A stretch of DNA of 45,140 bases, the filler included, from Jimgerdemannia flammicorona (Eukaryota): assembly GCA_003990765.1 (NCBI GenBank). It is 2 parts of 2 records of this genome, joined end to end, with 100 filler letters (N's around TTAATTAATTAA, not from the genome) between each part and the next. Parts side by side here need not be neighbours in the genome. Positions count along the whole stretch, not along the records: positions 22,624 to 45,140 come from RBNJ01001257.1; 1 more part is not named here. The stretch is one strand, 5' to 3'. The notes below the pieces were generated by a model. The model worked only from the letters and a program-made list of their open reading frames with translations, did no database searches and was not told the DNA's origin. Made by a program: the position numbers and the translations under genes. Below are positions 1 to 45,140 of the stretch, piece after piece. How positions within the stretch are numbered: position 1 is the first letter of the stretch; each line of letters opens with the position of its first letter.

Positions 1-1444
1 ATATCTCTTAGACTAACTCAAGTTGTTATAAGCAAGTTCTTATTGGAGTGCCTTCCCAAGGTCTTATAGTTCTCAAACTTCTTATCTTTAACTGTCTTGT
101 TATCTCTTAGATTGCTTGCAAGGAAGTATGTGTAAGTGAAACCAGAACTGACTTTATTTCAGAGGAAATAAGAGGGGTATTTATACAAAATACAATTCAA
201 TAGTTACTAAGATATAAAGCAAAATATAAATTCCAATAACTAAAACTACTAAGTTTCAGAGTCGGTACTGATGGTTGTATAGGTTCAGGATGCTGGCATT
301 ATTTAGTGTCATATCAAAATGCCGGTGCTGGAACAATTTTGTGTCATCTCAGAATACTAGTGCTGGCATTATCCAGTGTAACAAAGAACTTAGAGCAGAA
401 AGTTCAGGATCATGGGGGCTTTATCATCATCATCACTAAAGGAGATGAGATCTGTGAATTCATCATGCAGGTCGCGTGTTTCGTATATGTCGCGCAGGAT
501 GACATCATTGCCAATGACGTCATCACATTCGGCTGTGGCGGGGAAATCAGGAACAAGGTCTGGAGCTCTCCAGTCTATGAGGTTCTCTTCTACAAAATAA
601 GAGACAAATGTGGAGTCTTGGGGAGATCTAATCCAGATGCTTGGGCCTTGGAATACTGATATCAATCCTTGCAGGAATTGGTCTGGGTTGTCCTGAAGGA
701 TAGGGTTCCAGAAGTCTTCTACTTCTTCACTGTTGAGGGTGATAGTGGACCGGGCTTCTGTAGCCACCCTGGCTTCTAGTGCATTGATACAGTGAGATGA
801 TAGGTCTCTGAAGTCTGAGACTCTAACATACTCCAAGTTGGGGATCAACCATGGTGCATGCCTGAAGATCTGATAGATCTTCTTAGCTGTCCTTGTTTTG
901 TGTATATCTATGGGAGTGGCATCTTATAGCTCTTGGGTGCTGGCTTGTGGGAACTCCCAGCAGAGGAGGTTTCCTATTTCGTACTCCTGCCATATTTGAA
1001 GGCATTCGGTAGCAATAGTGATTCTTGTTTCCATTTCACAGCGGTAGAGAATGAAGTAATAAGGGTCTGCAGTACCCAGGTTGACACTAGGAGTCCTTCT
1101 TGAGCAGGTTCTCATGGCTCTTCTGATGTCTTGGAACATCCTCTCCTTGACCGAGATACCTTGGTGATTCCTTGACCTTGAGATTTGGCGAGCAGCAGAC
1201 ATTTTATTTGTGGTAAGTCTTTGAGCTATTTTGGGATTGGTGGTTCTTGTTGGTTACTGCTACTGCAGTTCCTTGATCCTTCTTTTATATTCTTCAGGAT
1301 GCTTGTGCTGTGGTCACAATGACTCACAGTTGGTCATCATTGCTCATCTTGTATGCTGTAAGATCTTCTTGTGCTCCGATCTGGTGACTTGTAAGGAAAA
1401 GCTGTCTCTGGTACTGATGTCATCATTCTGGGGTCACCATTATA
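1..1444 (-). repeat. Long LTR of Gypsy family A (third copy, left end cut by the window edge; 5' LTR of another copy or a solo LTR)
   Basis: Colinear with 27734-29283 and 42968-44521. Ends ...GGGTCACCATTATA versus ...CACCATTACA in the 5' LTR. Minus-strand TATAAATA near 178-185 and AATAAA at 153-158. It abuts the pre-RT region of the family B element. Confidence 0.93.
390..1202 (-). pseudogene. LTR-internal ORF ('ORFX'), 270 aa, unknown function, one internal TAA at 924-926
   Basis: ORFs 924..1202 and 390..848 are in the same frame, and the gap reads through without further stops (DATPIDIHKTRTAKKIYQIFRHAPW). The same frame is present in the other two LTRs, and a protein-level homologue lies at ~26470-27230. 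Confidence 0.8.
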
Positions 1445-1639
1445 CTATATTATGATAATAGTATAGAGTCTTTTCTTTGATATTCTTGAAGTCTGTGGCT
1501 AGGATATTCTTGAATTCATAGAGTATCTCTTGAGCTCCTTTTTGAGTGGGAATTTCTCTCCAATAATATAGCTATACTTGTTTATTATTTTCTCCTTTCT
1601 GTAATCTAGTTTGGTGATCTTAGTGCTAGCAAATACTCC

Positions 1640-21769: not shown

Positions 21770-22053
21770 ATACTGGGTAGCGTATATAGATTGAAAGTGA
21801 TGCCAGAGGGACGGTGTGGTAAATGGAGGGATGAAAGGTGGATGGGTCCGTCGATGGGTGCGTGGTTGTGTAGTGTTTCATTTTCGGGGTCATATTTCTT
21901 TTCTTCTCTTTTTTCCGGTATTTCTCAACCGGCGTACCAATGTAACCGACATAGTCTATTGTATCGCGTTATGGTTGTATTTTGCACCATCGCTTCTCGT
22001 TTGAAATCCAGTTCCTCGTGTATGATATTAAACCTGTATTTTTTTTTTTTTTT

Positions 22054-22523
22054 GCTCGTCCTCAACCACTTGCATGATATATCTTCAGCTTCGATAGTGT
22101 CATAAGATATCGTAGAATTACTCCGCATTTTTATCCGTCGCATTTGGCACGCGCTTGCGAGGCCTAAGCATCATGGCGAGTCCTGGATTCGGCGGAAGGA
22201 GATCCGAACTCCATATGGCCGATTACCAAGCAAACCAAACCGGGAGATTGGAAGATTCAACTCAGAAGACCCGATTTTTTGTGGTTTAAAATCGTTTATG
22301 TATATATGATACAGCGCGAGAAGGGAGTAGAGCAGAGCGATATGCGCGCAAAAAGTTCGGCTGCAACGTAAAGTTGAAAAACTGGCCTTTTTTTTTTTTT
22401 TTTTTTTTTTTGCTCGTCCTCAACCACTTGCATGATATATCTTCAGCTTCGATAGTGTCATAAGATATCGTAGAATTACTCCGCATTTTTATCCGTCGCA
22501 TTTGGCACGCGCTTGCGAGGCCT
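22054..22523. repeat. Exact 112-bp direct duplication (22054-22165 and 22412-22523), each copy preceded by poly-T
   Basis: The sequences are identical. The second copy abuts the gap, so it may be an assembly artefact. Confidence 0.9.
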
Positions 22524-22623
22524 NNNNNNNNNNNNNNNNNNNNNNNNNNNNNNNNNNNNNNNNNNNNTTAATTAATTAANNNNNNNNNNNNNNNNNNNNN
22601 NNNNNNNNNNNNNNNNNNNNNNN
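22524..22623. other. Artificial 100-nt contig spacer (Ns with a TTAATTAATTAA six-frame stop linker)
   Basis: N44 + TTAATTAATTAA (22568-22579) + N44. Confidence 0.97.
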
Positions 22624-25052
22624 TTATAGTCACTTGGACTTCCACTTTATTACCAATTACTAATCTATAGATATAGTTACAGTACCTCCTCCCACTACCC
22701 AATCCCCCTAGAGGGGCTCTCCTCTAACTCATCATACTTGAAAGCCATTCTATCCTCTACTACTCTAACTCTCCTCTTACTCTGCTCATAGATTTTCTCT
22801 ATCAAACTATACTGCTAATCACTCTATAGTCTCTAACCAAGTTACCAGTCTATCAAGATGTCCTCCATTAACTCTTTCTATCTCAGCAATTGCACCCTCA
22901 GTCCTAGACTCCTTCCATTCTCAAAAACAAATAACCAGTGATCTGCCAACCTCATCTATATAGTCAAAACCCACTCTAAAGTGAGCCACTCCTTTCTAAC
23001 TCTCTCTATCAATCTATCCTGCAAATTCTCCCATTAGCCTCTCACACCATCTCTCCTATATACTACTCCTAATTGAAACTTAACTACCAATCAGAAATTG
23101 CCCAGCACCTTACACTCTCTTAGCCAATGTTCAGACATCTATATAAAATTCCCTTCTTGCTCTATATTATAATACTCTTCACAGTCAAAACTTCCCCCCT
23201 CTACCAGATAGTCTGAGTGAAAGGAGTATAATATTTCTCTACAACATATACCACCAGACTACCTAGTACTTTAGTGGCAACTACTACCTGATCTCAGCAC
23301 TCTAGGCCCAGACTCTATTCTAGTCTCACTCCTCCCTAATATCTATCTGCTGCTACCCACTAGGCCATAAATTCTGTCCTAACCCTCTCTGATACTTGAC
23401 CCCATTACTAATATTGAAGTTGATTAATAAGATGCTCCTCAATAGTACATAGTCCTATCTCTATATTATGGGGCCCCAAGGCAACTCTCCTTCATTTCCC
23501 CACTATTGAATTCTAATACAATATACCCCATCTATAACTCTCTATCAGAAACTCTTATATTGCATGTGCCCATTGTTCTGAAGCCTGACTAAGGACAGTA
23601 GATTGCCTGTAGAGCCTCTTAGTATAGACTTCATCTTCCAAACCCTTTTCATCAGGAGAACCCAGCCACTGTCTCTCAGCTCTACCACTCTCTTCAGCCA
23701 CCATGCTCACAGACAGTATAGCCTCTTCATAAAATCAACTAGTCCAAGTTCTTCCCTAGCAACTGATAAAGACAAGATTTCCCAGCTAATCTCCTCCCAG
23801 CCCAGATCTACCCCTTAGCTAGTTTTAATAATCTCTTTACCACCCAAGCTGGGAAGTCCAAATGATAGACTAAGTACTATAGCTTTGGTAGCCAGTAGAT
23901 ATTCAAGATAGAAATCTGCTCTACTAGAGATATATGGCAGTCACTCCAACCCTGCAGAGCCTTCTCCCAGATTGTAACTCACTGTTCTCACTAAGCTCTC
24001 AGTAAGACTGATCTATACACTGAGAGATAAATATCTAAGTATTGCACTACCTCTCCAGCTGAGACAATTGTTCCAATAACATCTCCCCCCACTAGACCAT
24101 TACCTAATACTATTGTCTCATACTTGTGTCAATTGAGTTTGGCCCCAGAATATACCTTATACTACTCCACCATTACCTTGAGTTCTTCAACATTAGTGAT
24201 TAATTTCAGACCAACTACCATATCATCAGCAAAGGCTCTAATCTTTTATTCTATATCTAATACTGAGAGCTCCACTATTTTCTGCCTAATCCTATTCCAT
24301 CAATGGCTCCAATGAGAGTATATACAGAATAGAGACAATAGGTTCCCTTAGAGAACCCCCCTACCTAGAGAGAAGACTCCCTCTCAGTGATCATTACACA
24401 TAAGCACAGCTCTACTCCCTTTCAGTAGGCTGATCATCACTACTCAGAATTACTGAGGAACACTAATCCTATCTAGGACCTTCACCATTTAAACCCACCA
24501 GACATGGTCATATGCCTTCTCTTGATCAAGAAAAACCAGATGTCCATTTAGTCCACAGGTATATATCCCCTCAATAATACCATACACCCAAGCTGTGCTA
24601 TCCCTAATGAGCCAGTCTCCTACAAAACCCTACTGCTCCTCCCCCAAGACCTGCTAGACCACCTTCTGCAACCTTACTACTACTAACTTAGTAACCAACT
24701 TTCTGTCTATATCTAGCAGCATGATCAGCCTCCAGTTCCTCCAGTTCTCTCTCCTGTCTTTATTTTTATAGAGCAGTGCCACCAGTTTCAGATCCTGCTC
24801 ACCCACCCAACTATCTGACCATAGTACTAAGTTACACATTGCTATCAGCTCTCCCATTATATTGAGAATTCCCACCATCTTCTTCTAAAAGTCCCAGAGT
24901 AGACCATCCTCTCCTGGTACCATGCCCAATATAGTTGTAGTAAGAACTTAGTAAATTTCTTTCTCTTATACTGGTAATATCAGACTGTCCAGCCCTTTTA
25001 TTAGTAGTAAGTATCAATCCTCCAAAGTCTGATTAATAGTAGCACTATCAGC
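22624..25052 (-). mobile_element. 5'-truncated, degenerate L1/Tx1-like LINE (RT region to 3' end)
   Basis: Minus-strand NWRLIMLLDIDRKLVTK, FLDQEKAYD and AFADDMVVG. Its 3' end TTATAGTCACTTGGACT matches 37524 onward. The poly(A) tail probably falls in the gap. Confidence 0.88.
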
Positions 25053-25597
25053 TCAGTATCTTTTACTGTTACAAGTAGAATAATTGGGACAAGTACCTAG
25101 CCTATACTGAGTTTGTCTACAATAATAGCCAGCAAATCTCTACAAAGAAGACTCCATTCTTTCTGAACCATGGTCAATACTTAAGGACCCCAAGCACTAC
25201 TATAAAATTAGCAGTCTCAGTATCTCAAGATTGGTTGAGATCATTTCTGACCTTATCTGAATGATAAGAGATACTCTCATAGAAGTACAGGACTACTCAA
25301 GTACATGAACTTAAAGCAAAGGAAAGTCTCTTATGATATTGGTGATATAGTTATACTTAGAACAGATTACTTCTACTCAGATACTCTGGTATAACAATTA
25401 GTCAAGAAACTCTATACTAGAAGAATTGGACTATACAAGATTGTGGAAAAAGTCAGTAAAGTCAACTATAAGTTACCACTTTCCTACAATATTTGAGTAC
25501 ACCTAGTATTCCATATTAGTCAACTGGTGGACTACTATGAGAACTTATTCTTTAAGTATATAGTTTTACTACCACTTCTAATTAGGATCAATGATTA

Positions 25598-25745
25598 TAA
25601 GAAATTCGAAATCAAAAAAGTACTTGACCACAAGGTCTACAAATATTCTAAAACAGTCAAGCAGTTTTTCCTCATCAAGTAGAAGAGTTACTCTACCCAT
25701 GACACTATTTGTGAAAAAGAAAAAGCTTAAGAGAATATATGTAAA
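25598..25745 (+). pseudogene. Integrase C-terminal chromodomain remnant
   Basis: KFEIKKVLDHKVYKYSKTVKQFFLIK*KSYSTHDT matches the chromodomain pattern (Y/F)EVEKILDH...YLVKWKGY. Confidence 0.75.
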
Positions 25746-26469
25746 GCCCTCTAGGACTATATGGAAATACTTACTCTCCAGCAAAGAAAGAAACTGTAGC
25801 TCTAAGACTTAGAGTATATAGTAATGAAAAAAGGCATCATATATTTATCTGGAATATATAATACCAAACATTAACAGAAAAAAAGGAATATAATATCTAA
25901 TCAACAAGAAAGATACTTAAGCAAAGAATAATTCAGCATAGTATAGTAAAATATATTTGAATAACTCCATTTTATACCATCTGTTTCATCTCTACTAGAT
26001 GATAATGGATACTTTATATAGAACTTAGGAAAGCTGATAATGTCAAAACCAATCTAAGTCCATTTATATAACAGATATTATTATTAGAAATTGTCTCAGA
26101 TTATAAGAAATACTATTTCTGAGAGATTTGAACTCCTAGCCATAACAATGAGAGCTCTTGCTCTAGATAAGAATGGTCAGTCCTTGCAAATATACCAGCC
26201 AGACAAAAAAAAAGAGAATCAAGATCTATCAACTCTGTATAACCACAACTATAAGTAGTGATATCTTTGAAATTAGGATTTTCTCATGTGATCAGTACAT
26301 GCCTTGCTTATAGTAACAGATCATACATTCTGCTAGAAAGCATGATCATATCAAGGTTATATCAGACTAGTGAATAAGTATAAATATCCAAGATAAGAAT
26401 ATACTACAACTCTTATCTCTCTCTCTCTATAAAGAAAAGACAAGATAAGAATACCTACTACCTGCCACC

Positions 26470-27230
26470 AAACTGTCTACTATAGCTAGCCCCTCTCAAG
26501 CCAGGTTGATCACCTCTTTGGATATATTCAGGTTACTATCCAAGAAAGGAACCACCACTCTGAGGCCCTTAATCTCTCTAGCCAGAACCTAGAACAGTAT
26601 GTTCTTGACTGCTGTAAATTCATCAAAAGGGCCTACCTTGCTACCAGTTGCCTAGAGATCTGACATGAATATGAAATTGGTCACCAACTCTCTAATGTAC
26701 AAAAGATTGGACTAACCTAGACAGACATAAGCAAAGACTAGCTAAGAAGATCTATCAAATTATATACCATATATTTTTTACAATCTCCAATCTCAACTAT
26801 GTATAACTGAAGGATTTCCAGAACCTCTTCTTCCCCAAGGTTGATGAGCTAGAGATCAAGGTAGCCCAAGAAGTCAACTCCTGGATTACCCTCAAGTTTA
26901 CTAATATTGAACTCCACTGGAGCCCCTTTTTGAATAATAATCCAGACCAATGGCTCTAGGACCTCTCTGATCTCTTTAAAGGACTATCTATCCAAATGGA
27001 TATCTCTAGACATAAGAATTAAGAACTCTATTTGAATGGTTCCAACCATATTAGATGAAGAATCTCTACACTAATATCTATTCCAATTAAGAACTATTTG
27101 CAGACCTCATTGACTTCTCTATCCTAGACACTGAGCCATCAGTAACTATCCCCCTTACTACTGAAGGAGAAGACAACATTACTGAGAAAGATTCTCTACC
27201 TTTTTCTCTCCTGGTTCTCAATTTCTGAAT
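26470..27230 (+). pseudogene. Diverged homologue of the LTR-internal ORFX (stops and at least one frameshift near 26730)
   Basis: LATSCLEI*HEYEIGHQL, AKKIYQII...ISNLNYV*LKDFQNL, LEIKVAQEVNSWITL, HWSPFLNNNPDQWL*DLSDLFKGLSI and DLIDFS align in order with ORFX. The ends are approximate. Confidence 0.8.
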
Positions 27231-27263
27231 TAACAAGAATATTTATTTTTAAGGAGGAAAATA

Positions 27264-27733
27264 TATAATAGAACAAACAGACAAGCAAACAGATGAGCAA
27301 ACAGATAAGATACAACAAGTGATTACATGACCCAGTAATGATGTAATATGATTGAGCATGATATATAATATTATGAACAACAGATATAATAGATGATATG
27401 TATGAATGATGTAAAAAATGATATCTAGTTTATCTCCAACAATCAGTACCATAGCAACTATTACCACAGCAGCTGATTATTACCTAGTAATTGAGATTCT
27501 GATCACAAAGTGTTTTTTTGTTACAAACTACCTGATAAAGGTTATAATCACAAACCTTACTATAGTTATCAAATTAGTCACTCATACTTAGTCAGAAATC
27601 ATAGACTAACTTATATAAATACCCCCCAGTTTCCATTCAAAATAAAGCAGTTTTAGTTCAGTTCTTGATATACATAAGAATCAAGTCTCCTCCACACATA
27701 CACATTTTCTTGAGTCTTAGTAATGATATCTAA
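27264..27733 (+). repeat. Putative 3' LTR of family C, interrupted at CTAA by the family A element and probably resuming at 44522
   Basis: Follows the PPT. Contains TATAAATACCCCCC (~27614) and AATAAAGCAGTT (~27641), a module resembling that of the family A LTR. The far end was not determined. Confidence 0.55.
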
Positions 27734-29283
27734 TGTCACATAGTGGTTGCTGAGTCCTTCAAATATACCAGATTCTCTTCAAGGTATATCTCTTAGACTA
27801 ACTCAAGTTTATTATAAGCAAGTTCTTATTGGAGTGTCTTCCTAAGATCTTATAGTCCTCAAACTTCTTATCTTTAAACTGTCTTGTTATCTCTTAGATT
27901 GCTTGTAAGGAATTGTATATATTGTACTAAGAGGAACTGACTTTATTTCAAAGAAAATAAGAGGAGTATTTATACAAAATATAATTTGATGGTTGCTAAG
28001 ATATAAAGCTAAATATAAATTCTAATAACTAAAACTACTAAGTTCCAGAGTTGGCACTGATGGTTGTACAGGTTCAGAATGCTGGTATAATTCAGCATCA
28101 CATCAGAATACTGGAGCTGGAACAATTTCATGTCACCTCAGAATATCAGTGCTAGTATTATCCAGTGTTATGTCAAAATATTAGTGCTGGCATTATTCAG
28201 TGTAACAAAGAACTTAGAGCAGAAAGTTCAGGATCATGGGGGCTTCATCATCATCATCATCACTAAAGGAGATAAGATCTGCGAATTTGTCATTTTGCAG
28301 ATTGTGCATCTCGCATATGTCATATGTTTCATATGCTTTGATATCATATGGGATGACATCATCGCTGATGATATCATTATGTTCAGTGGCAGGGAAATCA
28401 GGGGCTCTCCAATCTATAAGGTTCTCTTCTACAAAATAAGGAACAAATATGGGGTCTTGGAGAGATCTAACCCAGATGCTTGGGTCTTAGAATACTGAGA
28501 TCAATCCTTGCAGGAATTGATCTGGGTTGTCTTGGAGGATGGGGTACCAGAAGTCTTCTACTTCATCACTATTGAGGGTGATAGTAGACTGGGCTTCTGT
28601 AGCCACCCTAGCTTCTAGCACATTGATGTGGCAGAATGATAGGTCTCTGAAATCTGAGACTCTAACATACTCCAAGTTGGGAATTGACCATGGTACATGC
28701 CTGAAGATCTGATGGATCTTCTTAGCTATTCTTGTCTCACGTATATCCATGAGAGTGGCATCTTATAGCTCTTGAGGGCTGGCCTGTGAGAACTCTCAGT
28801 AGAGGAGGTTTTCTATTTTGTACTCCTACCACATTTAGAGACATTCAGTAGCAATAGTGATCCTTGTTTCCATTTCATAGCAGTAGAGGATATAATGATA
28901 GGAATCTGCAGTACCCAGGTCAATACTAGGAGTCCTTCTCAAGTGGGTCCCCATGGCTCTTCTGATGTCTTGGAACATTCTTTCCTCAACTGAGATGTCT
29001 TGGTGATTCCTTAACCTTGAGGTTTGATAGGCAGCAGGCATTTCATTTGTAGTAAGTTTTTGAGCTATTTTGGGATTGGTGGGTCTTATTGGTTGCTGCT
29101 ATTGCAGTTCCTTGATCCTTCTTTTATATTCTTTAGGATGCTTGTACTGTGGTTACAATGACTCACAGTTGGTCATCATTGCTCATCTCATATGCTATAT
29201 GATCTTCTTGTGCTCCGATCTGGTGACTTGTAAGAAAAGGCTGTCTCCTATGCTGATGTCATCATTCTGGGGTCACTATTACA
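27734..29283 (-). repeat. 3' LTR of family A (1550 bp)
   Basis: TGTCACA...ATTACA, a direct repeat of 42968-44521. Confidence 0.95.
28214..29041 (-). pseudogene. ORFX copy in the 3' LTR (276 codons, several stops)
   Basis: ORF-track pieces 28835..29041 and 28487..28750 share one frame. The span equals that of the 5' LTR copy (828 nt). Confidence 0.75.
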
Positions 29284-29293
29284 TCTTCCTCCT
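29284..29293 (-). other. Polypurine tract
   Basis: Minus-strand AGGAGGAAGA immediately before the TGTAAT of the 3' LTR. Confidence 0.85.
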
Positions 29294-29468
29294 GAATAAG
29301 GATCTTTCTGAGCATCCTTATTCATTGGTCCAGTTCTGAAAAATTTACTGATTCCATAACCTCTGGCAAGGGGTTGAAAAGTGATGTTTATGGGCTGGTG
29401 TCTTTTCTTTGTATTTTGGCATGATGGTGAAGAGTCACTCCCTTCCATCTTTCTCTAGTATCATTCAG

Positions 29469-32400
29469 GTTACACAACCTTTGGAGAGTACTTACAATAG
29501 CATTTTTGGAGAAAAGAGACTAACAACATGGCAACCAACAGGCAATCTGAGGTGCATACTGGGCAGAGCAGCCCAAGTGCTTTCAAATGGCAGTAGGTGG
29601 GGAAGAGCCTGGGCCTGGGGAGGAGCATGAGGGGACTGCTGGCAGGAGGACATGGAAGAGGTGGAGGTATTGATGACAGACAAGGGTCTGGAAGAGCAAG
29701 CTTTGTGGAGATGGTGAAGGGGAGGCAGTAGGCATCAGGGCTGGAGAGCTGGCTGAGGAGAGGCAAGGAGACTGAGAAGGTGGCAGTGCATGATGGAGTA
29801 GCCCTTGGAAAGGGGGGAAGTAGAGCTGGGGGAGTAGCGGCTGGGGGGAGTGTAACTGCTGATGGTGATGGGACTGCTAATCTGGAAAAAAATCCATATA
29901 TAATGACTGTTGGCAAGGCTGAGTAGCTGAGGCTTGGAAGACAAGAGAATTTGGCAGATGGCGTGATGGGCCTAGTGGTGGCTCCATTACTCAAAAAATT
30001 AATCTCAGCATTTGCAGTTACACTGTGCTTCCAGGGCTTAGTGATGACAGCAAAAATAGTACTAGGACTTATCACTAAGCAAGTGGCAGGAGCTATGTCA
30101 GTAAAGTTTTTGAAGGGACTAGAGGGTGTAGAGGTGGGTTTTGAGGAGGCTGAGCCGCTGGAGGAGGCATTGAAGGTTGGATTGGTGGTTGGGGAGATGT
30201 GTGTTCTGATGGCAAGGTGTCTGAAATGGGACCCAAGGGTGGTCCAACTGCTGGTAAAAGGAGTGCCCATAGTGATGGTGATGGAGACAAGAAAGAGAAT
30301 TGAGGATGTCATGGCAGAGTATGGAGAGGTAGTGGATATCAGATTCAGGGTCTGGGAAGGGACCTTGCTCAGAACTGGGGACATGGATATGAGAATTCGG
30401 CTAGCTGGGAAAGAAGCTACTGGGAAGACAAGGGACTGGCCTTCAGTAATGGTCTGAGGAGTGATCTTATACAAGGTAACAAGGGTGAAAGGAAGTGAAG
30501 AGGAGGAAGAGGATTTATTGGAAGCACTGGAAGAATTGGATGGGGCCATGGAGTAGTGAGCAAAGGCTTGGAAGGTTTTCGTGGAGTCGATGCACCTGGA
30601 GGTGGTGGATGGAAAGAGGATTCGAGTGGACAAGGTGCAGTAGGAAAGAGCTCAGGGGCATAAAAGATAGAAGAATCTGCTGGCTAAACTGGGGAACAGA
30701 CCACAGGAGGATATGAGTAAGATGATGGGTGGAGAAGGGGCCAAAGTGAGTGTCTGGGCTAGCGAGAGGAGTGGGAATGCCGGGGAGGAGATGGGGATGG
30801 CGAAGGAGGTAAAGATTACTGACCCATATGCTGATGGCACCTTGGAGGTTTGGGAGGAGGTCTGGGAGGATTCTCCCACTCCTTCTCCTCTTATCAGGCG
30901 AGGCCCAGCTTCCAGAAATAAGATGGTGGAGGACATGACAATGCTGGGGATCCATCAGGTGAAATTTGGCATTCCGAAGGTGATGGATGGGAGACATGTG
31001 GTGGCAGCCGGGGAGGAGGAACTGGTAGATGTCCCGGAGGTATGGGATGAGGCTGCAAGTGCTGGGGCTGACACCATAATGCTGGATAGAGGGAGGCCAG
31101 TGACCTCTGGAGGAAAGAAGGTGGGGAACCTACTTTGGATGTGCAGGATGATGAATAACCTGGCAGTAGAAGAGTTGGGGGAGGTGGACTTGTGAGTGAT
31201 GAGTGATGAGCACTGGGCATGGATTTTGCAGGGGGATGGAGTGATGATGGCACTGAAGGTGGAAATTCTCACAGTATATCTGGAGGAGGAAGGGTATGAG
31301 GTGGACAAGGAGCAGGAGATGGAGATGGCAGTTATCACTAGGGAGAGGGCTGAGTACTGTTAGAACAAGCATCATAGATTACAGCTTTGGCAGGAGGCTT
31401 GCATTAAGTACCAGAAGGAGTTTGAGGAGAAGGCAGATGGGGAGATAAATGAGCTATTGGCTGGATTGAAAGCTCAGAGGACTGAAGAGGAGGAGATGAT
31501 GGCAGAACATAATTTAGATATAGTACAGGAGGAGATGAGCATGGAGCAGTAGAGATCGACTGATAACAAATCGTATTTATTATAAACAGTACAACCAACA
31601 TTTTTTCTATGAACGTGAATGGGCTATGGGGCACTGTTAGATATAGGAACATTTTTATTTGGCTAAAGGGATTAGAGGCCAATCTCTTCCTCTTGCAGGA
31701 TGTCAGGTGTGAGGATGACTCTAATAGGATAGAATAGACAAAGGAATGGGGTGGCATGGTGATTTGGAATAGCAAGGTCAGGATTCTGGTTTGGAAAGAC
31801 AGAGGGGAGATAAGAGATGTAAGGAGCTGGGGGGAGAGGCTGGTCTGGGGTAAATGGATTCATGCAGGCTGGGAGCCAGTTACAGTTGGCTCCTGTTACT
31901 GCCCTGCCATAAGGGGGGAGCATGTAGATTGGGTGAAGGGTCTCTAGGAGAGTGGGATCCTGGCAGAGGCTGGCATGGATATGCTTAGGGGAGATTTCAA
32001 TATGGTTCGGGATGTACAGATGAATAGAACTGATAGAGGATGGAGTGCTGAGGGAAGGAGTGGGGGGCTGGCAATGTGGGAGGAAGTTGAAAGACTAGGA
32101 GCACTGGTAGATACTGGTAGAGAGTACTGGGGGGATAGGAGGGTATATATGCATTGGGCTGGAGGCCTAGGGATAAGGATCAACTGGGTTCTGATGGCCA
32201 ACTGTTGGGGCTGAGATGTTTGGAAGTCGCTGGAGGTAGAATGGTGTCCATGGTTGGATCACTGGGGCCTTTTAGGACAGGGGTGCTTTGGGGGAAGTGG
32301 GGATGGGCCTGGACATTGGTGCCTAAATTCCTCATTATTAGATGATGAGTCCCAGTGGGAGGAGTAGGCTAAAGACATTCAGCTGAGAGTGGCGACCTGG

Positions 32401-35318
32401 TAGCAGAAAGGTGCCTCAATTGGGGTTTGGTGGATGAGGATAAAAGAGATGGCCAGGATGTACTAGAGCAAAGCTGACAAGGTGGCAGGGAAGCAGTAAT
32501 AGCAGAGAGTGTACTGGGCCTCTACTAGATTGGCCAGGCTTCTGGAGGATTGGGCAAGACTGGCGATGGTGGAGGGAGAAGAAGATTGGAGAGTAATAAG
32601 AGCAAAGATGGAGGTTGGGAAACTACAACAGGTGCTGCAGGAAGAGGAAGAGGCAAGGGTGCAAAGCTTAGTAGCATGGCTTCGTTGGCAGGGGCTGGAG
32701 GAAGGGGAGAGGCCTTCTAAGTTTCTCACGAGGACCCTTAGGGCGAGAAGGGTACAGCAATGGTGGGAAGGGGTACTTGACTCTGATGGTATACTAGTGC
32801 ATGGTGTACAGAATATTCTTAGATTACTGAAGGAGTGATAGAGGGAATTGTGGAGTGAGGAGGAGGGTGGAGCAGATGCTACTGCCATTGACTATACATT
32901 GGAGGATTGGTATCCACCATATGTTGCAGAACTAGATGACCTGATGATGCCTGTAAAGGAGGATGAGATCCACCAGGTTCTTGCCATGACAGCCTCAGGT
33001 ACTGCTCTTAGGGAGGATGGCCTACCCTGGGACTTCTGGAAGCGAATGGTTGGAGTCCCAGATATGATGGGAGAGTTGATGGCATTGTGTGACTCTATAT
33101 TGCAGACAGGGAGATGGGTGGGGGAGCAGGATCTTGGGCTGGTGATGCTGCTTTATAAGAACAAAGAAAGGTGAGAGGATTGGAAGAACTGGCGGCCGAT
33201 AATGTTGCTTGATATGGACAGAAAGTTGGTGACTAAGGTGGTGGTCATGAGGCTACAAAAGGTAGCCCAGCAAGTTGTAGGGGTTGAGCAGAGGGGATTT
33301 GTAGGTGGTTGGCTCATTAGAGATGGCACAGCCTGGGTACATGGAGTTATTGAAGGGGCTAGAACCTGTGGACTGGATGGGCAACTAGTCTTCTTGGACC
33401 AGGAGAAGGCTTATGACTAGGTGTGATGAGTCTGGCTGGTGAAAGTATTAGATAGAATGGGGGTTCTGATCCAATTCAGTTAGCAATGATCAGCCTACTA
33501 GAAAGGAGTAGGGCTGTGCTCATGTGTAATAGACATAGAGGGGTAGCATTCTCTCTGGGTAGGGGGGTGCCCCAGGGGGACCCACTGTCCCCCATCTTGT
33601 ATGCACTTTCCCTGGAACCCCTAATGGACAGAATTAGGCAGAGGATAGGGGGGCTCTCTATCTATGGCATTGGGTAGAAAGTTGAGGCCTTTGCAGATGA
33701 CATGGTGGTTGGTTTGTGATCAATTGCTGATGTCAAGGAGCTCAAGAAGGCAGTGGAGTGATATGAGGAGAACTCTGGGGTGAAGCTGAATTGGCACAAG
33801 TGTGAAACAATGGTACTAGGCAATGACCTGGTGAGAGGAGAAGTTATAGGAATAATTGTTCCCACCAATAAGGCAGTGCAGTACTTGGGCATCTATTTGT
33901 TAGTCTATGGGTCAGTTCTGCTCAGACTTTGGTGGGAGCAGCAAATTGGAATTTGGGAGGAGGACCTGTGAGGTTGGGGGGGAAGACACTTCTCTCTGGC
34001 AGGATGGGTCTTGATTTTGAATGTATATTGGCTGCTGAAGCTGTGGTATTTGGCTTATCATCTGGACTTCCTGGCCTGAGTAGTGAAGAGATTAGTGAAG
34101 GTGGCCAAGAGATGGATTTGGGCTAGCAGATAGAGCCAGATTAGTTGGGAGACCTTGTCCCTAATGGTGGCAAGAGGTGGTCTTGGGCTGGTAGACTTTC
34201 CCAAATGACTACACTGCTTGAGAGCATAGTGGCTTAAGAGAGCGGTAGAGTTGCAAGGAGGGAGTTGGGTTCCCCTGCTGCAGAAGGTCTGGGAGAGGCA
34301 GTCATCACTGAGAGGCTCAACTGGTGATCTTCTCTCTTTGGTTAGACTTCAAAATACTGCACAATTACATTATAGAGGTTTCTGGTGGGGGATTGTGGAG
34401 GGGGCACACCACATTGGTATTTGCTGGCAGGGGAATGAGGGGGAGGAGGCTTGGGACCCAGCGATGTAGAGATGGGAAGGCATACTGCTGGGTGGTATGC
34501 CTTTACTTGAGTTCGACATTGGTGATGGAATAGAATACCAGAGGGGACCAGGCCAGGATCTGTGGCCTAGCAGTTGGCAAGGAGTTGGAATTGGAGAAGA
34601 GTGGGACTAGTATGGTGTTTGGATCTGGAGTGCTGCAGTATACAATTGGATGCTACCAAAGTACTGAGTGGTCTGGTGGTACATGCTGAGGAGGAATGTA
34701 ATGCTCAACTTCTGCTCAGGGCACCTTATCATAGAGGGTTGCTTTGACTGTGAGGAGTGCCACAATGTAGGGTAGGAAGGGGACTTTATACAGATGCCAG
34801 AACATTGGCTAGGAGAGTGTGAGGTGTTAGGAGACTTTTGGCAGATCATCGGGGACCACTTGGGGGTGAGGTGCAGGAGAGATGAAGCAGGAGGGAGGTG
34901 GGAGGACTTGAGGGATCAATTAGTAGGAGGGGTAGGAAAGGAGTGGATTACTTTAGGTTGGGCATTGGCTATCTAGGTTGGGCTGGCTGGTCACTGGCTA
35001 TTTGTTTTTGAGGATAGGAGGTGACAGAGCTTGGGGAGTTGATTGTCACAGTGGCAGGGACTTATGGAAGATACCTTGACAGGCTGATGGCTTGGCTGGG
35101 GGCTGCAAGGAGGTCAGAGGTGCTGCTTGGTGGAGAAAATCTGTAGACAGAGTGGGGGAGAGTTGGAGTCATTGGTGAGCAGGTGATTTTTATTTGTGAA
35201 GGAGTGGGGAGGGGCTCCTCTATGGGAATCAGATAGTTGGTGGTGATATTGTATACTTATTCATAAACTGAAAAGGGTTGCTCCCTTCATATAGAGCAAG
35301 GGCCTGATTCTGATCTTA
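29469..35318 (+). mobile_element. Near full-length degenerate L1/Tx1-like LINE (ORF1; ORF2 with APE endonuclease, RT and C-terminal Cys/His)
   Basis: ORF1 frame from ATG 29528 with RRM-like LLVKGVP...MAEYGEVVDI. APE motifs MNVNGL, GDFNMV and LDH (~31600-32330). RT motifs WRPIMLLDMDRK, QRGF, LDQEKAYD, GVPQGDPLSP and AFADD. CEEC...EHWLGEC near 34750-34820. The boundaries rest on a weak TSD (ATCATTCAG/ATCAATCAG) and are tentative. Confidence 0.88.
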
Positions 35319-35489
35319 ATCAATCAGTTGATAGTTTGAACTCCTCTGACTTTAAAAGTCTCACAGATGAGTAGTTGCCAGTGCTATATTCCTTAGAGAA
35401 TGGTTCAGACAGATAGCCTACTGGTCACAAGATATGCTGTTACAATTCATGGACTAGAACCTTGCAGGCAGTCATTATATTTTGCTTCT

Positions 35490-39552
<4,063 letters not shown>

Positions 39553-42500
39553 AGAGGCCATGCTTCTTGAGCTTCTTGAGGGCTAGCTGTATATGATTGA
39601 TATGTTCCCATACAGTATTGCTGAAGATGATCACATCATCAACATAGACAAAGAGCTATTTTCCAATCTCATTGCTGAAGACTCTGTTCATCATTTGCTG
39701 AAAACTTGCTAGGGTATTATACATTCCAAATGGCATTCACAGGTAGATATAGGTGGCATCAGGTGTGATGAAGGCTGATTTCTCACTGGTATCTTGAGTG
39801 AGATCAATCTGATGGAAGTCTAAGAACAGATCCAAGGTGGTGTAGTATTTGGCTTTGCTTCCAAGGGTGGTAAGAATTTCTTAAATATTTGGTAAGGGCT
39901 GTCTATCCTTCTTGGTAATGGCATTGAGTTTCCTATAGTCAATGCAGAGTCTTGGTGCAAATTCTCCAGGCTTGCTTCCTTTCTTCGAGACAAGGACAAT
40001 GGGTGAGGTCCAGGGGCTGATAGCTTGCTTGATAATTCTGGCTTCTTCCATTTTCTTGAGTTCTGCTCACAGCCACTCTCTGTAGGCAGGTGGTATCGGT
40101 CTGGCTTTCTGGTAGATGGGCTTGGTATCACCAGTATTAACTTCATAATAGTACTTGAGTTCTTGATTGTGAATATCCCTAAAGTCTGTAGCAAGTACTC
40201 CTTCATTCTGATGTAGGATCTTTAAAAGTTATTCCTCTAGGGGAAAGTTTTCTCCAATGGTATATATGTGCTTGTTCTGGTCCTTGTCTTTCTTGTGTTC
40301 AAGTTCGGTAATCTTAGTGGTAGTATAGGCTCCTCTTCCAGTAGATCTAAAGTCTTGTTCTCCTCTCTTGGTCTTGATGAGTTTGATGGCTTCAATGATC
40401 TTAGGTTTCTTGATTTCATGGATCAGCATCTGGCCAATCCTGTCATGCTTCTTGACTTTGAAGGGGGTGGTGTAGTTGTGATTTCTGACTATGAGGAAGA
40501 TCTCGCCAGTATAATCTGGGTCAATTACTCCTCCTTCAACTGAGATTTCGCTTTTGGCCAGACTGCTCCTGGTCTTGATAATTCCAGTATAGTTCTCTGA
40601 CAGCTTGACTCCAATTCCAGTACAAAGTAGGGTGGTGGTCTGTGGTTTGAGGGTAGCATCTTGAATGCTGGCAAGGTCTATTTCTATAGCTTCTTCAGTC
40701 TTGTATTCTGGGATCTTGGCTTTGGGGTGAAACTTCTTGACCTTGAGGGTGATGTCTGATTCTTATTCCTCCTCATTATCGCTGTCAGCTTGGAGCTCTG
40801 GGGGCTGGTCATCTTCTTCAGCTTTCCTTTTTGCTTCAGCAGCTTCTTGCTCATATTTCTGTTGGCAGATTTTCCTGACCTCACTGATACAGGACCAGCA
40901 GTCATTCAGGTATTCTGAGTAGTATATCCTAGTACCATGAGAGCATCTTCCTTGAGGGGCATAGCCATTGATGATCTTATTATACCACTGCTCATCTGTG
41001 AGCTTGGGTGCCTTGTTCTTGTTCTTGTTCTTATTCACTGAGTGCATGAAGACCTCTGTGTCCTCTTCATCTCCTTCCTCCATGTCTGGTAGAACTCCTT
41101 TGTAGATATTGATAAAGACTCATACCTTTTTTCCTCTATAGTTGATCTGCATCTTCTGGGCATTGAGATCAATAATGGCCTTGGCCTTGTGAAGCCATTG
41201 GTTGCCAATGAGGATGTCATAGTTGGTGGTACTTATAACAATCACATTAACTAGGATAGTAGCTCCTCCTATCTTGATGGAGACTTCTCAGATTTTGCCA
41301 TGGAGAGTAGCTTGTATACCATCTGCTGTGATATAGACCATCTTGGTGGACTCTTCAATGTTCCAACCTAGGTAGTCAATTGCCTTCTTGCTCATGAGGC
41401 ATCCTCCAGCACCAGTATCAATGATGGCATCAAAGATACAGTCTTCGATCTGACAGGGTGTATAGGCTGATGTCTTGCACTGGTCTTTGGATTCTTCACC
41501 TGAGTTCTCAGATTCTTCCTATACATTGTGAGCTTCTACAATCTTGTACTCTTGATTCTTGATGATAGTTATAAGTCCTACTCTTAACTGCTGTCTGAAG
41601 GCAGGAACTTCAGCTAGTTGTCCAAAAGTAGCATTGACCTTCTGTTTCTTAAGGTTCTTATAGATATCATACTGGTGGATCTTAGTCTTGTACAGCTTCT
41701 ATTCCTTCTTGCTTTCACTTTCTCCTGAGACTGGAGTAGTGCCTTCAATGATTTGGCAGATAGCTTCATCTAACTCCATATCTTGATCAATCTCCTCTGG
41801 TTGAGTCTTGCTTTGAATAGTGATAGCTGGGGTCTTCTTTGGTCTTCCAACTGGCTTGCTGTTGCTCTTCTTATCATAGGGCTTGGACTGGGTTCTGGTA
41901 CCTTCAGTAGCAGAGTAGAATTCAAGCTCCTCATAGTATTCTTCATCATCAGTATCACCAATCTCCTTGATGACTACTGTATTGGTTTGTTCTCTGGTTC
42001 TGCTAGTATTGCTTGGTTGGGCTTTGTATCTTGTTTCAGTCATGCAACTCTTTGTATAGTGGCCTTCTTCTCCACATCTGAAGTATGTGATATTGCATTC
42101 TTCTGTAGCGGCTGCAAATCTCTACACTGGTCTCCTGTTGGCACTTCAGACTTCTCTAACAACATCACCAAGGTGTACAGTCATCTCAGTGAACTGCTTG
42201 GTGAGTTCTTCCACTGGGTCAGCTTTGGCTATCTTGGGGGTAGGTGGGGTTGGTTGTCTGTTTACAACTGTGGTGGATATGATACTAGTTGGCTTTGATG
42301 GCTCCATCTTGATGCCAGTTATTTTTTCCATTGAGTATTTGGCAGGGTGTCTGGCAGTCCAATATCTCTGTACAAAGATCACTTTCTAATCAAGGGTCAG
42401 TGCAGCTAGGGTAGACTGGATTGCTAGGGCAATTTTAGGGTGAACTCTTTTGAGGAAAGTTGAATCTACTATTTGTTCCTTGAGGCAGTCATCATAGCCA

Positions 42501-42911
42501 GCCAAGACAATCTGGTGACAGATTCAGATATAGAATGAGTTGGGATCTTCACTAAGTCCATGGCAGATAGTATTGAGTTGATCTTTGAGAGCTTGCTTGA
42601 TCTCTTTGGTATAATATGTTGTTCTGAGAAAGACCTTCATGTTGGCAAGTTTGGCTACACCAGCATCAGCAATAGTGGCTGCATTGAACTTGTCTCTGGC
42701 AGATTCTCTGAGGCTGACTGGTAGAAGGGCCAATTGAGTATCTACACCAAGGGCTCATATGGCAGCAAATTGTTCAAAGTCTTCAATGAAGATCAGAATT
42801 GACTCTTTAGTAATATATCTATAGAATGTGAGGGGGCACATTTCTATCTTGTCTTGAATTCTTGCAGGGGTGACTCTTGTAGTCAGGGTAGTTGTTGTGG
42901 AGGTTGTTCAT
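39553..42911 (-). pseudogene. Family A gag and 5' pol (gag, CCHC knuckle, protease, dUTPase, RT to YVDD)
   Basis: ATG at 42911, YFRCGEEGHYTKSC (~42043-42087), AIIDTGAGG (~41403-41428) and LFVYVDDVIIFS (~39622-39657). Stops and frameshifts are present. Confidence 0.9.
40337..40760 (-). pseudogene. dUTPase domain between protease and RT
   Basis: IDL...TGIGVKL...KTRSSLAK...GGVIDPDYTGEI...DRIGQML...RGEQDFRSTG corresponds to trimeric dUTPase motifs I-V (motifs I and V decayed). Confidence 0.92.
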
Positions 42912-42947
42912 TTTTCAGCTTGAAAGTGAGGGATTTGTCTTAAATCA

Positions 42948-42964
42948 CCAGCCAATGGGCACCA
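42948..42964 (-). other. Primer-binding site
   Basis: Minus-strand TGGTGCCCATTGGCTGG starting 3 nt after the 5' LTR. The priming tRNA was not assigned. Confidence 0.75.
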
Positions 42965-42967
42965 AGT

Positions 42968-44521
42968 TGTCACATAGTAGTTACTGAGTCCTTCAAATAT
43001 ATCAGATTTTCTTCAAGGTATATCTCTTAGACTAACTCAAGTTTATTATAAGCAAGTTCTTATTAGAGTGCCTTTCCAAGGTCTTATAGTCCTCAAACTT
43101 CTTATCTTTAAACTATCTTATTATCTCTTAGATTGCTTGCAAGGAATTGTGTATATTATACTGAGAGAAACTGACTTTATTTTAAAGAAAATAAGAGGAG
43201 TATTTATACAAAATATAATTCAATAGTTGCTAAGATATATATAAAGCTAAATATAAATTCCAATAACTAAAACTACTAAGTTTCAGAGTTGACACTAATG
43301 GTTGTATAGGTTCAGAATGCTGGTATAATTTAGTGTCACATCAGAATACCAGAGCTGGAACAATTTTACATCACCTCAGAATGCCAGTACTGATATTATC
43401 CAGTATTATATCAAAATACTGGTGCTGGCATTATTCAGTGTAACAAAGAACTTAGAGCAGAAAGTTCAGGATCATGGGAGCTTTATTATCATCATCATCA
43501 CTGAAGAAGATGAGATCTGCGAATTCATCATTTTGCAGGTCATACGTCTTGTATATATTGCATATTTTGCATGCTTCGATATCACATGGGATAATATCAT
43601 TGCTGATGACATCATCACATTTAGCGGCAGAAAAATTGGGGGCTCTCCAATCTATGAGGTTCTCTTCCACAAAATAAGGGACAAATGTGGAGTCTTGGAG
43701 AGATCTAACCTAGATACTTGGGCCTTAGAATACTGAGATCAATTCTTGCAGGAATTGGTCTGGGTTATCTTGGAGGATAGGGTGCCAGAAGTCTTCTACT
43801 TCATCACTATTGAGAGTGATAGTAGACTGGGCTTCTGTAGCCACCATGGCTTCTAGTATATTGATGCAGTGGGATGACAGGTCTCTGAAATCTGAGACTC
43901 TAATATACTCTAAGTTGGGGATCAATCATGGTGCATGCCTGAAGATCTGATAGATCTTCTTAGCTATCCTTGCCTCATATATATCCATAGGAGTGGCATC
44001 TTATAGCTCTTGAGGGCTGGCCTGTGGGAACTCTTGGCAGAGGAGATTTCCTATTTCATACTCCTGCCATATTTGGAGACATTCAGTAGCAATGGTGATC
44101 CTTGTTTCTATTTCACAGCAGTAGAGGATATAATGATAGGGATCTGCAGTACCCAGGTCAATACTAGGAGTCCTTCTTGAGCAGGTCTCCATGGCTCTTC
44201 TGATATCTTGGAACATTCTTTCCTCAACTGAGATGCCTTGGTGATTCCTTGACCTTGAGGTTTGGCAGACAGCAGACATTTCATTTATAGTAAGTCTTTA
44301 AGCTATTTTGGGATTAGTGGGTCTTGTTGGTTGCTGCTACTGTAGTTCCTTGATCCTTCTTTTATATTTTTCAGAATGCTTATACTATAGTCATAATGAC
44401 TCACAGTTGGTCATCATTGCTCATCTTATATACTGTATGATCTTCTTGTGCTCTGATCTGGTTGCTTGCAAGGAAAGACTATCTCCTGTGCTGATGTCAT
44501 CATTCTGGGGTCACCATTACA
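42968..44521 (-). repeat. 5' LTR of family A (1554 bp)
   Basis: TGTCACA...ATTACA, adjacent to the PBS. Minus-strand TATAAATA at ~43201-43208 and AATAAA at 43176-43181. Confidence 0.95.
43452..44279 (-). pseudogene. ORFX copy in the 5' LTR (276 codons, internal stops)
   Basis: ORF-track pieces 44001..44279, 43725..43925 and 43452..43670 all lie in one frame. Confidence 0.78.
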
Positions 44522-45140
44522 CTAAGTAACTTTAGTATTTCTAACTAAACTTCAGAAGCCTAGCTAACTTCTGCCAGAACTGAGACCAGTATATAAATTC
44601 CCAAAGACTTAAGTAAACTCATTGAATCTGAATTCCAAGGTTCAGTCTATATATAGTAAAGAATAAGACTCTTAAAAGATAGGACAAATGAGAAAGACCT
44701 TTGAAAAATAAAGCACTACCACTACAATTACTTTCAAGTGAGTACTTCCTCAAACTAAAGGCTTCTTGGTACACATTGTACATATATTAAGTCTCTAAGT
44801 AATACCTTATTTTTCTAAGTATCCAAAGGATCAGAGAGAGATAGAAATAAAAGTTATTATATTCTGTAATATTAAATAGTTTAGAAGAATTAATAAGAAT
44901 TATATATTATAGCTTTATACAGACTTAAGTTACTTTATATTTGCTAGTTTGTCTCTGATTAGATTGATAATATTAATAGACTCAAACTACTTATTAAGGA
45001 CCTCATTAAATATTATCTAATCTTCAATTCTTATTTCTTAGTAGACAATAGTAGTTATATATGACATAATTGTGATTAACAATATTGATCACTCCTTTAT
45101 CTTTAAATTTGAGTTAAACTATTAAAAAGATATATATCTT

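Follow-up and report, generated by a model that had tools for sequence, protein, structure and literature searches.

Retroviruses are well known to carry accessory genes, as are some retrotransposons with long terminal repeats (LTRs) in plants and animals. The sag gene of mouse mammary tumour virus (MMTV) is a protein gene located inside the U3 region of a retroviral LTR, and we know of no equivalent of it outside the LTR in a sister lineage. In foamy viruses, an internal promoter drives the 3' regulatory genes tas and bet, which overlap U3, while env-like or extra open reading frames (ORFs) between the integrase gene and the polypurine tract (PPT) occur in plant Ty3/Gypsy elements (Athila, Tat/Ogre) and in insect errantiviruses. 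Extra ORF3 genes common to diverse LTR retrotransposon lineages were reported from bdelloid rotifers, as described in the abstract of that study (Rodriguez, Kenefick and Arkhipova 2017, PMC5408684). The locus presented here lies in a stretch of 45,140 nucleotides (nt) from Jimgerdemannia flammicorona (assembly GCA_003990765.1), analyzed as a whole and hereafter called the window. It carries four copies of a gene designated ORFX: three within the LTRs of one Gypsy family (family A), and one, at 26451-27252, beside the remnants of a second (family C). ORFX represents a family of accessory genes, so far undescribed, in fungal Gypsy elements. In the literature searched, which comprised listings and the opening parts of abstracts, no LTR retrotransposon of a fungus was encountered whose LTR contains a protein gene, nor was a name for ORFX.

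Self-comparison of the window identified a 1.5-kb repeat, LTR-A, in three minus-strand copies with 82-89% mutual identity:

1-1447, minus strand: LTR-A copy 1 (LTR1), cut by the start of the window, with the best-preserved ORFX at 393-1202 (270 codons, one TAA)
27734-29283, minus strand: 3' LTR of the family A element, ORFX at 28217-29041, 88.75% identical to 42968-44521
42968-44524, minus strand: 5' LTR of the family A element, ORFX at 43455-44279, then the primer binding site

ORFX extends over LTR-A positions ~245-1058 and is followed by a second TATA box at ~1262-1316; the copy in LTR1 was 86.5% identical to the database protein P0001. The other two LTRs belong to one element, and both carry ORFX. 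The PPT AGGAGGAAGA is located at 29284-29293, and the 3' LTR starts after it with TGTAATAGTGACC at 29284/29283 on the minus strand. The primer binding site after the 5' LTR is of the TGG type, and a 4-nt match, TTAG, at both outer flanks of the element may be a target-site duplication. On the minus strand of the interior, a protease (41518-41123), a dUTPase (40762-40232, PF00692, E 5.9e-25) between protease and reverse transcriptase (RT), an RNase H (E 5e-33), an integrase zinc finger, and an integrase core were identified. The interior is broken by two insertions resembling long interspersed nuclear elements (LINE-like), and no chromodomain was detectable in the element. The location of ORFX wholly within the LTR (U3), the layout of a U3-encoded accessory gene, is proven for family A. 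A previous interpretation of the window made without database searches, referred to as the sequence-only reading, had proposed for this family the order of integrase without chromodomain, PPT, and LTR containing ORFX. This order was confirmed by the LTR pair, the PPT before the 3' LTR, the primer binding site after the 5' LTR, and the presence of ORFX in all three LTRs.

The fourth copy is located on the plus strand and is recognized by the following features:

26451-27252, plus strand: decayed C-type ORFX gene, ATG changed to ATA, one frameshift near 26695, several stops
26640-26660, plus strand: peptide ATSCLEI
26741-26761, plus strand: peptide AKKIYQI
26786-26803, plus strand: peptide SNLNYV
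26849-26893, plus strand: peptide LEIKVAQEVNSWITL
26918-26956, plus strand: peptide WSPFLNNNPDQWL
27103-27120, plus strand: peptide DLIDFS

All peptides quoted in the sequence-only reading were located in the window as stated, and their ORFX partners were found on the minus strand of the three LTR-A copies. That reading had placed the gene at 26470-27261; the place is correct, and the actual remnant is slightly longer, as it extends from 26451 (ATA for ATG) to a stop at 27226-27228 or to the TAA at 27250-27252, which aligns with the stop of an intact relative. The proposed homology to family A ORFX was borne out by tblastn of LTR1 ORFX, its stop read as X, against 25000-27733. Two matches in two frames were obtained, at 26705-26992 (46.9% of 96 amino acids, E 3.2e-22) and at 26508-26774 (28.1% of 96 amino acids, E 3.6e-7). 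Comparison with the database protein P0007 resulted in 50.9% identity over 116 and 58.1% over 74 amino acids (E 5e-52), and comparison with the ORF of L001, a related metagenomic locus, in an E value of 1.5e-50. Over the core, 26451-27252 is only 42-43% identical to A-type ORFX, and the copy groups with the C-type, a second ORFX subfamily. It is a pseudogene, a dead copy of the ORFX family.

ORFX constitutes a genuine but rare family, with 270-340 amino acids, of accessory protein genes of fungal Ty3/Gypsy retrotransposons. A word-indexed protein search returned 5 matches at E<=0.01 among 479 candidates, and a profile search returned 5 of 1,835,955,588 representatives at E<=0.001. The latter matches were 138-342 amino acids long, so none is fused to pol. 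Two further matches were added by a search with the C-type ORF. Ten database proteins (P0001-P0011 except P0005), fragments included, are without stops, as is the L001 ORF. Two types were distinguished, an A-type (P0001-P0006 and P0011) and a C-type (P0007, P0010, and P0008), with P0009 as a distant third. The contigs of the database members span 778-4848 nt, the longest carrying P0008. Among metagenome contigs, one ORFX locus was confirmed out of 93 pattern matches, namely L001 (1535 nt), which contains an intact C-type ORF of 291 amino acids at 376-1251; none was confirmed among the pattern matches in viral contigs (0/49) and genome contigs (0/15). The conserved core reads WxEYEIG ... AKKIHQxFRH ... 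NPxLxDNPDQ[FW]L ... FxGPxI, and 26451-27252 has the similarity in this core. Differences at codon positions 1, 2, and 3 numbered 70, 37, and 100 between L001 and 26451-27252, and 122, 90, and 143 between L001 and LTR1, respectively. As third positions differ most and second positions least, ORFX has been under coding constraint. The earlier claim of one protein under selection is upheld by this codon-position bias together with the stop-free relatives.

The internal stop, which had been described as shared, is not common to the two families. The three A-type copies have TAA at one and the same Gln codon (CAA, in CpA context), while P0001, P0002 (271 amino acids), and P0003 are uninterrupted at this site and encode Gln there. 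In the neighbourhood of this site, 26451-27252 has a deletion and a frameshift, and its stops fall at other codons. Programmed read-through of the internal stop was considered and ruled out because of the Gln in intact members. The TAA common to the A copies either goes back to a source element whose ORFX was already broken when it transposed or arose from repeated hits resembling repeat-induced point mutation (RIP) at CpA.

Damage in the window copies is RIP-like. Between L001 and 26451-27252, 276 differences were counted, of which 123 were C>T or G>A and 38 ran in the reverse direction. When changes between the two LTRs of the family A element were polarised with LTR1 as outgroup, 113 of 153 were C>T or G>A, with 73 at CpA, 30 at CpC, and 4 at CpG. 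This spectrum accounts for the CAA>TAA and TGG>TGA/TAG stops, and the internal TAA of the A copies is likewise attributed to such damage and not to the design of the gene. LINE-like copies nearby keep ~50% GC.

What surrounds the fourth ORFX copy was assigned to family C as follows:

25075-25535, plus strand: integrase C-terminal remnant of family C, NWDKYL motif at 25082-25099
25341-25535, plus strand: integrase SH3 domain (PF24626 SH3_Tf2-1, E 6.3e-11)
25605-25724, plus strand: weak chromodomain remnant (PF00385, E 0.01, 16.2 bits) with stops at Trp codons
26378-26389, plus strand: TATA-like box ~70 nt before the ORFX start, a candidate promoter of its own
27251-27261, plus strand: polypurine tract AAGGAGGAAAA, overlapping the aligned stop, in the same place as AAGGAGGGAGGA in L001
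27262-27733, plus strand: putative 5' part of the family C LTR, starting with TATATAATAG (cf. TGTAATA), with a TATA/AATAAA block at 27612-27650, cut at 27733 by the family A insertion

The integrase SH3 domain was the sole domain clearly detected with Pfam on the plus strand of 22624-27733, and no gag-protease-RT-RNase H-integrase core was found on this strand in one element with ORFX. Family C consists only of ~0.7 kb of integrase tail and the sequence 3' of it, with no RT left, as the remainder was lost to a LINE-like element and to the edge of the contig. The stretch 22911-24911 was considered as family C pol and rejected, since it is a LINE-like RT on the opposite strand. Between the integrase tails of families A and C, tblastx recovered only a 6-amino-acid match, NWD.YL (E 0.51), which is weak evidence for different clades because both integrases are decayed.

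The border between ORFX and the putative family C LTR is preserved in L001. Window positions 26465-27298 align with L001 398-1300 through the ORF, the stop, AAGGAGGAAAA, TATATAATAG, and ~30 nt beyond, while the two sequences are unalignable past this junction island and upstream of the leader. In L001, the stop codon overlaps AAGGAGGGAGGA, which is followed by TTGTAATAAG; the junction is read as AAGGAGGGAGGA-T directly abutting TGTAATAAG. The tract AAGGAGGAAAA is similar to the family A PPT AGGAGGAAGA, and the conserved island of ~50 nt is shaped like the proven family A junction of AGGAGGAAGA and TGTAATAG. The LTR-like start in the window reads TA, not TG, and its first ~40 nt are kept in L001. 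In the Podospora element crapaud, RIP can change the G of the terminal TG to A (PMC10787394), which fits TATATAATAG, with TA for TG, at 27262.

Further into the putative LTR, a TATA/AATAAA block at 27611-27653 is homologous to TATAAATAC...AAATAAAG of LTR-A (BLAST E 0.003-0.03; 1/300 shuffles). LTR-A positions 87-114 resemble the sequence 13-39 nt past the tract, with shuffle fractions of 0.040 for L001 and 0.053 for the window. The tail of LTR-A showed no such likeness to the LTR part of L001 (shuffle fraction 0.17). The end of the family C LTR was sought past the family A insertion, from 44529 onward, and could not be placed. At 44835-44880, in DNA that would continue the family C LTR, a purine run AGAGAGAGATAGAAATAAAAG is followed by TTATTATA-TTC-TGTAATATT, which looks like an LTR end adjoining an LTR start or a PPT junction. 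In L001, a 28-nt direct repeat (GTCAGGCGGAAC...) at 170-197 and 1481-1508 flanks the ORFX cassette (0/500 shuffles) and could be a duplicated promoter or enhancer element.

The junction island common to L001 and the window, the likeness of LTR-A 87-114, and the shared TATA/AATAAA block favour the order ORFX-PPT-LTR for the C-type, with 26451-27252 directly before the LTR, and we consider this arrangement probable, if by no means assured. The sequence-only reading had given the order as integrase with chromodomain, ORFX, PPT, and LTR. A succession of integrase SH3 domain, ORFX, purine tract, and LTR-like sequence in line with this order was recovered on the plus strand, while the chromodomain remained below threshold.

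Within this arrangement, ORFX appears as a cassette with its own flanking signals. The TATA-like box of the window aligns with ATATAAAAG in the three LTR-A copies and with TATAAAAG in L001, all of them ~70-85 nt upstream of the start, and a leader just 5' of the ATG, AAAGACTTACCACAAA, is common to LTR-A and L001 (0/300 shuffles). Family A is arranged as PPT, LTR start, ~150 nt, TATA box, leader, ORFX, ~200 nt, TATA/AATAAA block, and LTR end. In the C-type as read here, the TATA box, leader, and ORFX come first, followed by PPT, LTR start, ~350 nt, and the TATA/AATAAA block. The PPT and LTR-start block would thus precede the cassette in family A and follow it in the C-type, so that a block would have been moved or duplicated. 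The simple shift of the PPT/U3 boundary that had been suggested earlier does not account for this difference between A and C. Families A and C clearly resemble each other in ORFX and in the LTR core block, and far less in the integrase tails; this contrast, the only hint of the exchange of the module between Gypsy clades that the sequence-only reading had proposed, would fit 3'-end recombination between clades.

ORFX would accordingly be placed as the last gene of a plus-strand family C element, ending directly at the PPT and at a TGTAATA-type LTR start, in an LTR that would later have been split at 27733 by the family A insertion. Transcription of ORFX may be driven by its own TATA box, with the LTR supplying the signal for polyadenylation, and the product would be a 3'-coterminal mRNA of about 1.1-1.3 kb. 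Each family A LTR, solo LTRs included, would then be a complete ORFX gene. In its full form, the proposal is that ORFX is a self-contained retroelement regulator gene (TATA box, ORF, and LTR poly(A) signal), located inside the LTR in one lineage and before the PPT in a chromovirus lineage. Relocation or duplication of the PPT plus LTR end, together with 3'-end recombination between co-packaged RNAs of different Gypsy clades, would connect these layouts. This combined proposal is put forward tentatively, and we consider it unlikely to hold in every part.

Several observations weigh against the preferred reading of the locus. The link between the integrase remnant and ORFX is one of adjacency only, and the chromodomain at 25605-25724 reaches 16.2 bits against a Pfam cut-off of 25.1, with three stops in the stretch. 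The window lacks a second copy of the supposed family C LTR, whose start at 27262 rests on motif conservation. When the family A junction was compared with 25800-27733, the best match was at 27246-27271, a score reached by 24% of shuffles, and a second purine-rich site followed by TATAATATC at 25875-25897, after the chromodomain, scored almost equally. TATA-like words are common in the AT-rich DNA of this region. All four ORFX copies in the window are dead. At the protein level, 0 Pfam families were assigned to the four intact ORFX proteins searched (4/4) at E<=5, and the AlphaFold2 model built from 9 sequences was poor, with a pLDDT (predicted local distance difference test score) of 55.3 and a pTM (predicted template modelling score) of 0.49.

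In an alternative explanation, ORFX of family C is also enclosed by the LTR. The start of this LTR would fall shortly behind the chromodomain, for instance at the purine run and TATAATATC of 25875-25897 or near 26250, and the tract after ORFX would be an internal relic or another cis element. The stretch 26250-27733 is colinear with LTR-A throughout, including leader, ORF, and TATA/AATAAA block; the 28-nt repeats of L001 could be a U3 enhancer pair within one long LTR; and the PPT of chromoviruses is usually found directly after the pol stop, and a PPT-like site at 25884-25926 scores 12 compared to 13 for the site at 27246. Besides the leader, however, non-coding conservation between L001 and the window is limited to one island, the ~50 nt directly after the stop, which holds the PPT and TGTAATA. 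Nothing in 25790-26445 matches the first 250 nt of LTR-A (shuffle fraction 0.35 for LTR-A 1-250 against 25800-26470) or the post-PPT sequence (0.15 and 0.37 in a duplicated-junction test of the post-ORFX junction against the pre-ORFX spacer). An ORFX inside the family C LTR is thus regarded as unlikely, although it deserves consideration.

That the integrase and chromodomain remnant and the stretch of ORFX and LTR are two elements joined by nesting or deletion is suggested by the nested insertions on both sides (22624-25074 and 27734-44524), by 650 nt of unassignable sequence between chromodomain and ORFX, and by the 375 nt upstream of ORFX in L001, which neither read like pol nor match the spacer in the window. 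Both parts are nevertheless on the same strand, in the expected order, and similar in composition (GC 31% and 34%, G-poor), and the sequence separating them showed neither a repeat boundary nor a target-site duplication nor another element, which makes this junction of two elements rather improbable. Were it true, the assignment of ORFX to a chromodomain-type Gypsy would fail. An origin outside retrotransposons, with ORFX as a host or orphan gene fragment within repeats or as non-coding repeat homology, would agree with the absence of a known domain or fold match and with the very small size of the family. It is opposed by the presence of ORFX in all three LTR-A copies and beside an LTR-like junction in two C-type sequences; by the copies with visible context, four in the window and L001, which all lie in or beside an LTR; and by the codon-position bias, which shows coding. 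Such an origin is highly improbable.

A function for ORFX was considered from the protein itself. The N-terminus is rich in Arg, the core is helical, and the acidic C-terminal tail contains repeats of DLI[S/N/T]F and closes with a conserved ILNFLL. The AlphaFold2 model shows helices to ~residue 185 and then the disordered acidic tail. A fold search of PDB chains returned 0 of 48,161 at Z>=5 (best Z 4.4), and in the ESM Atlas the best feature score of 0.83 and the best TM (template modelling) score of 0.33 were both under the useful range. Based on the Arg-rich N-terminus, the acidic DLI[S/N/T]F tail, and the C-terminal ILNFLL, ORFX could act in trans to regulate expression of the element that carries it, similar to Tas or Tax, a role that we suggest with low confidence.

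The genes in the window are fungal in content, with a chitin synthase, a Zn2Cys6 protein, and an F-box/LRR gene, and the region around 26451-27252 is a stack of nested insertions, LINE-like at 22624-25074 and family A at 27734-44524. Two further features mark its left border:

22524-22623: linker N44-TTAATTAATTAA-N44, the join of two contigs; the ORFX-bearing contig (RBNJ01001257.1) starts at 22624
22624-25074, minus strand: fragment of a LINE-like (non-LTR) retrotransposon with RVT_1 (E 3.9e-15)

Immediately left of the linker, 127 nt occur twice in identical form (22039-22165 and 22397-22523), probably through an artefact of assembly. The plus strand of 22624-25074 showed no RT or RNase H domain of Gypsy type. 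In the self-comparison, this fragment was related to 33013-35021 on the plus strand, with ~69% DNA identity in inverted orientation, and to 37991-39553 on the minus strand. Three LINE-like RT copies are present in total, at 22624-25074 (minus strand), ~29360-35270 (plus strand), and ~37425-39600 (minus strand), the last of which terminates in a run of 75 A. Their coding strand is extremely skewed (~35% G, ~14% C), and this skew results in long spurious ORFs on the opposite strand, up to 393 amino acids and without Pfam match.

If ORFX functions as suggested, an LTR on its own would amount to a complete gene, expression of ORFX could continue from solo LTRs, and the gene would be duplicated at each transposition of a family A-type element. 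The same module on either side of the PPT/LTR border would be a natural experiment on how LTR borders move, and ORFX would be a new candidate protein for the control of retrotransposon expression or the evasion of genome defence in fungi.

Among the systems introduced above, MMTV sag is resembled by family A, in which a complete ORF lies in U3 with a copy in both LTRs, while ORFX differs by having no Pfam family and by its host and element class. With tas and bet of foamy viruses, ORFX has in common a 3'-terminal accessory position, a putative promoter of its own, and an LTR poly(A) signal, and its acidic tail is compatible with an activator. In contrast, its promoter is proposed on the basis of conservation in the TATA box and leader, and ORFX is not homologous to these genes. 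The C-type ORFX, as the last ORF ending at the PPT, takes the position of the additional ORFs of Athila, Tat/Ogre, and errantiviruses, but no Pfam glycoprotein family was assigned to it, and its model is helical with a disordered acidic tail. The ORF3 genes of bdelloids are env-like or encode a GDSL esterase or DEDDy exonuclease, as far as the abstract states, whereas ORFX matches no family and belongs to a fungal host; the abstract describes none inside an LTR (PMC5408684). In both cases, nevertheless, Gypsy-type lineages that differ from one another, some of them encoding a dUTPase, carry an additional ORF downstream of pol, a pattern that points to modular sharing of genes, as that abstract presents it for bdelloids (PMC5408684).

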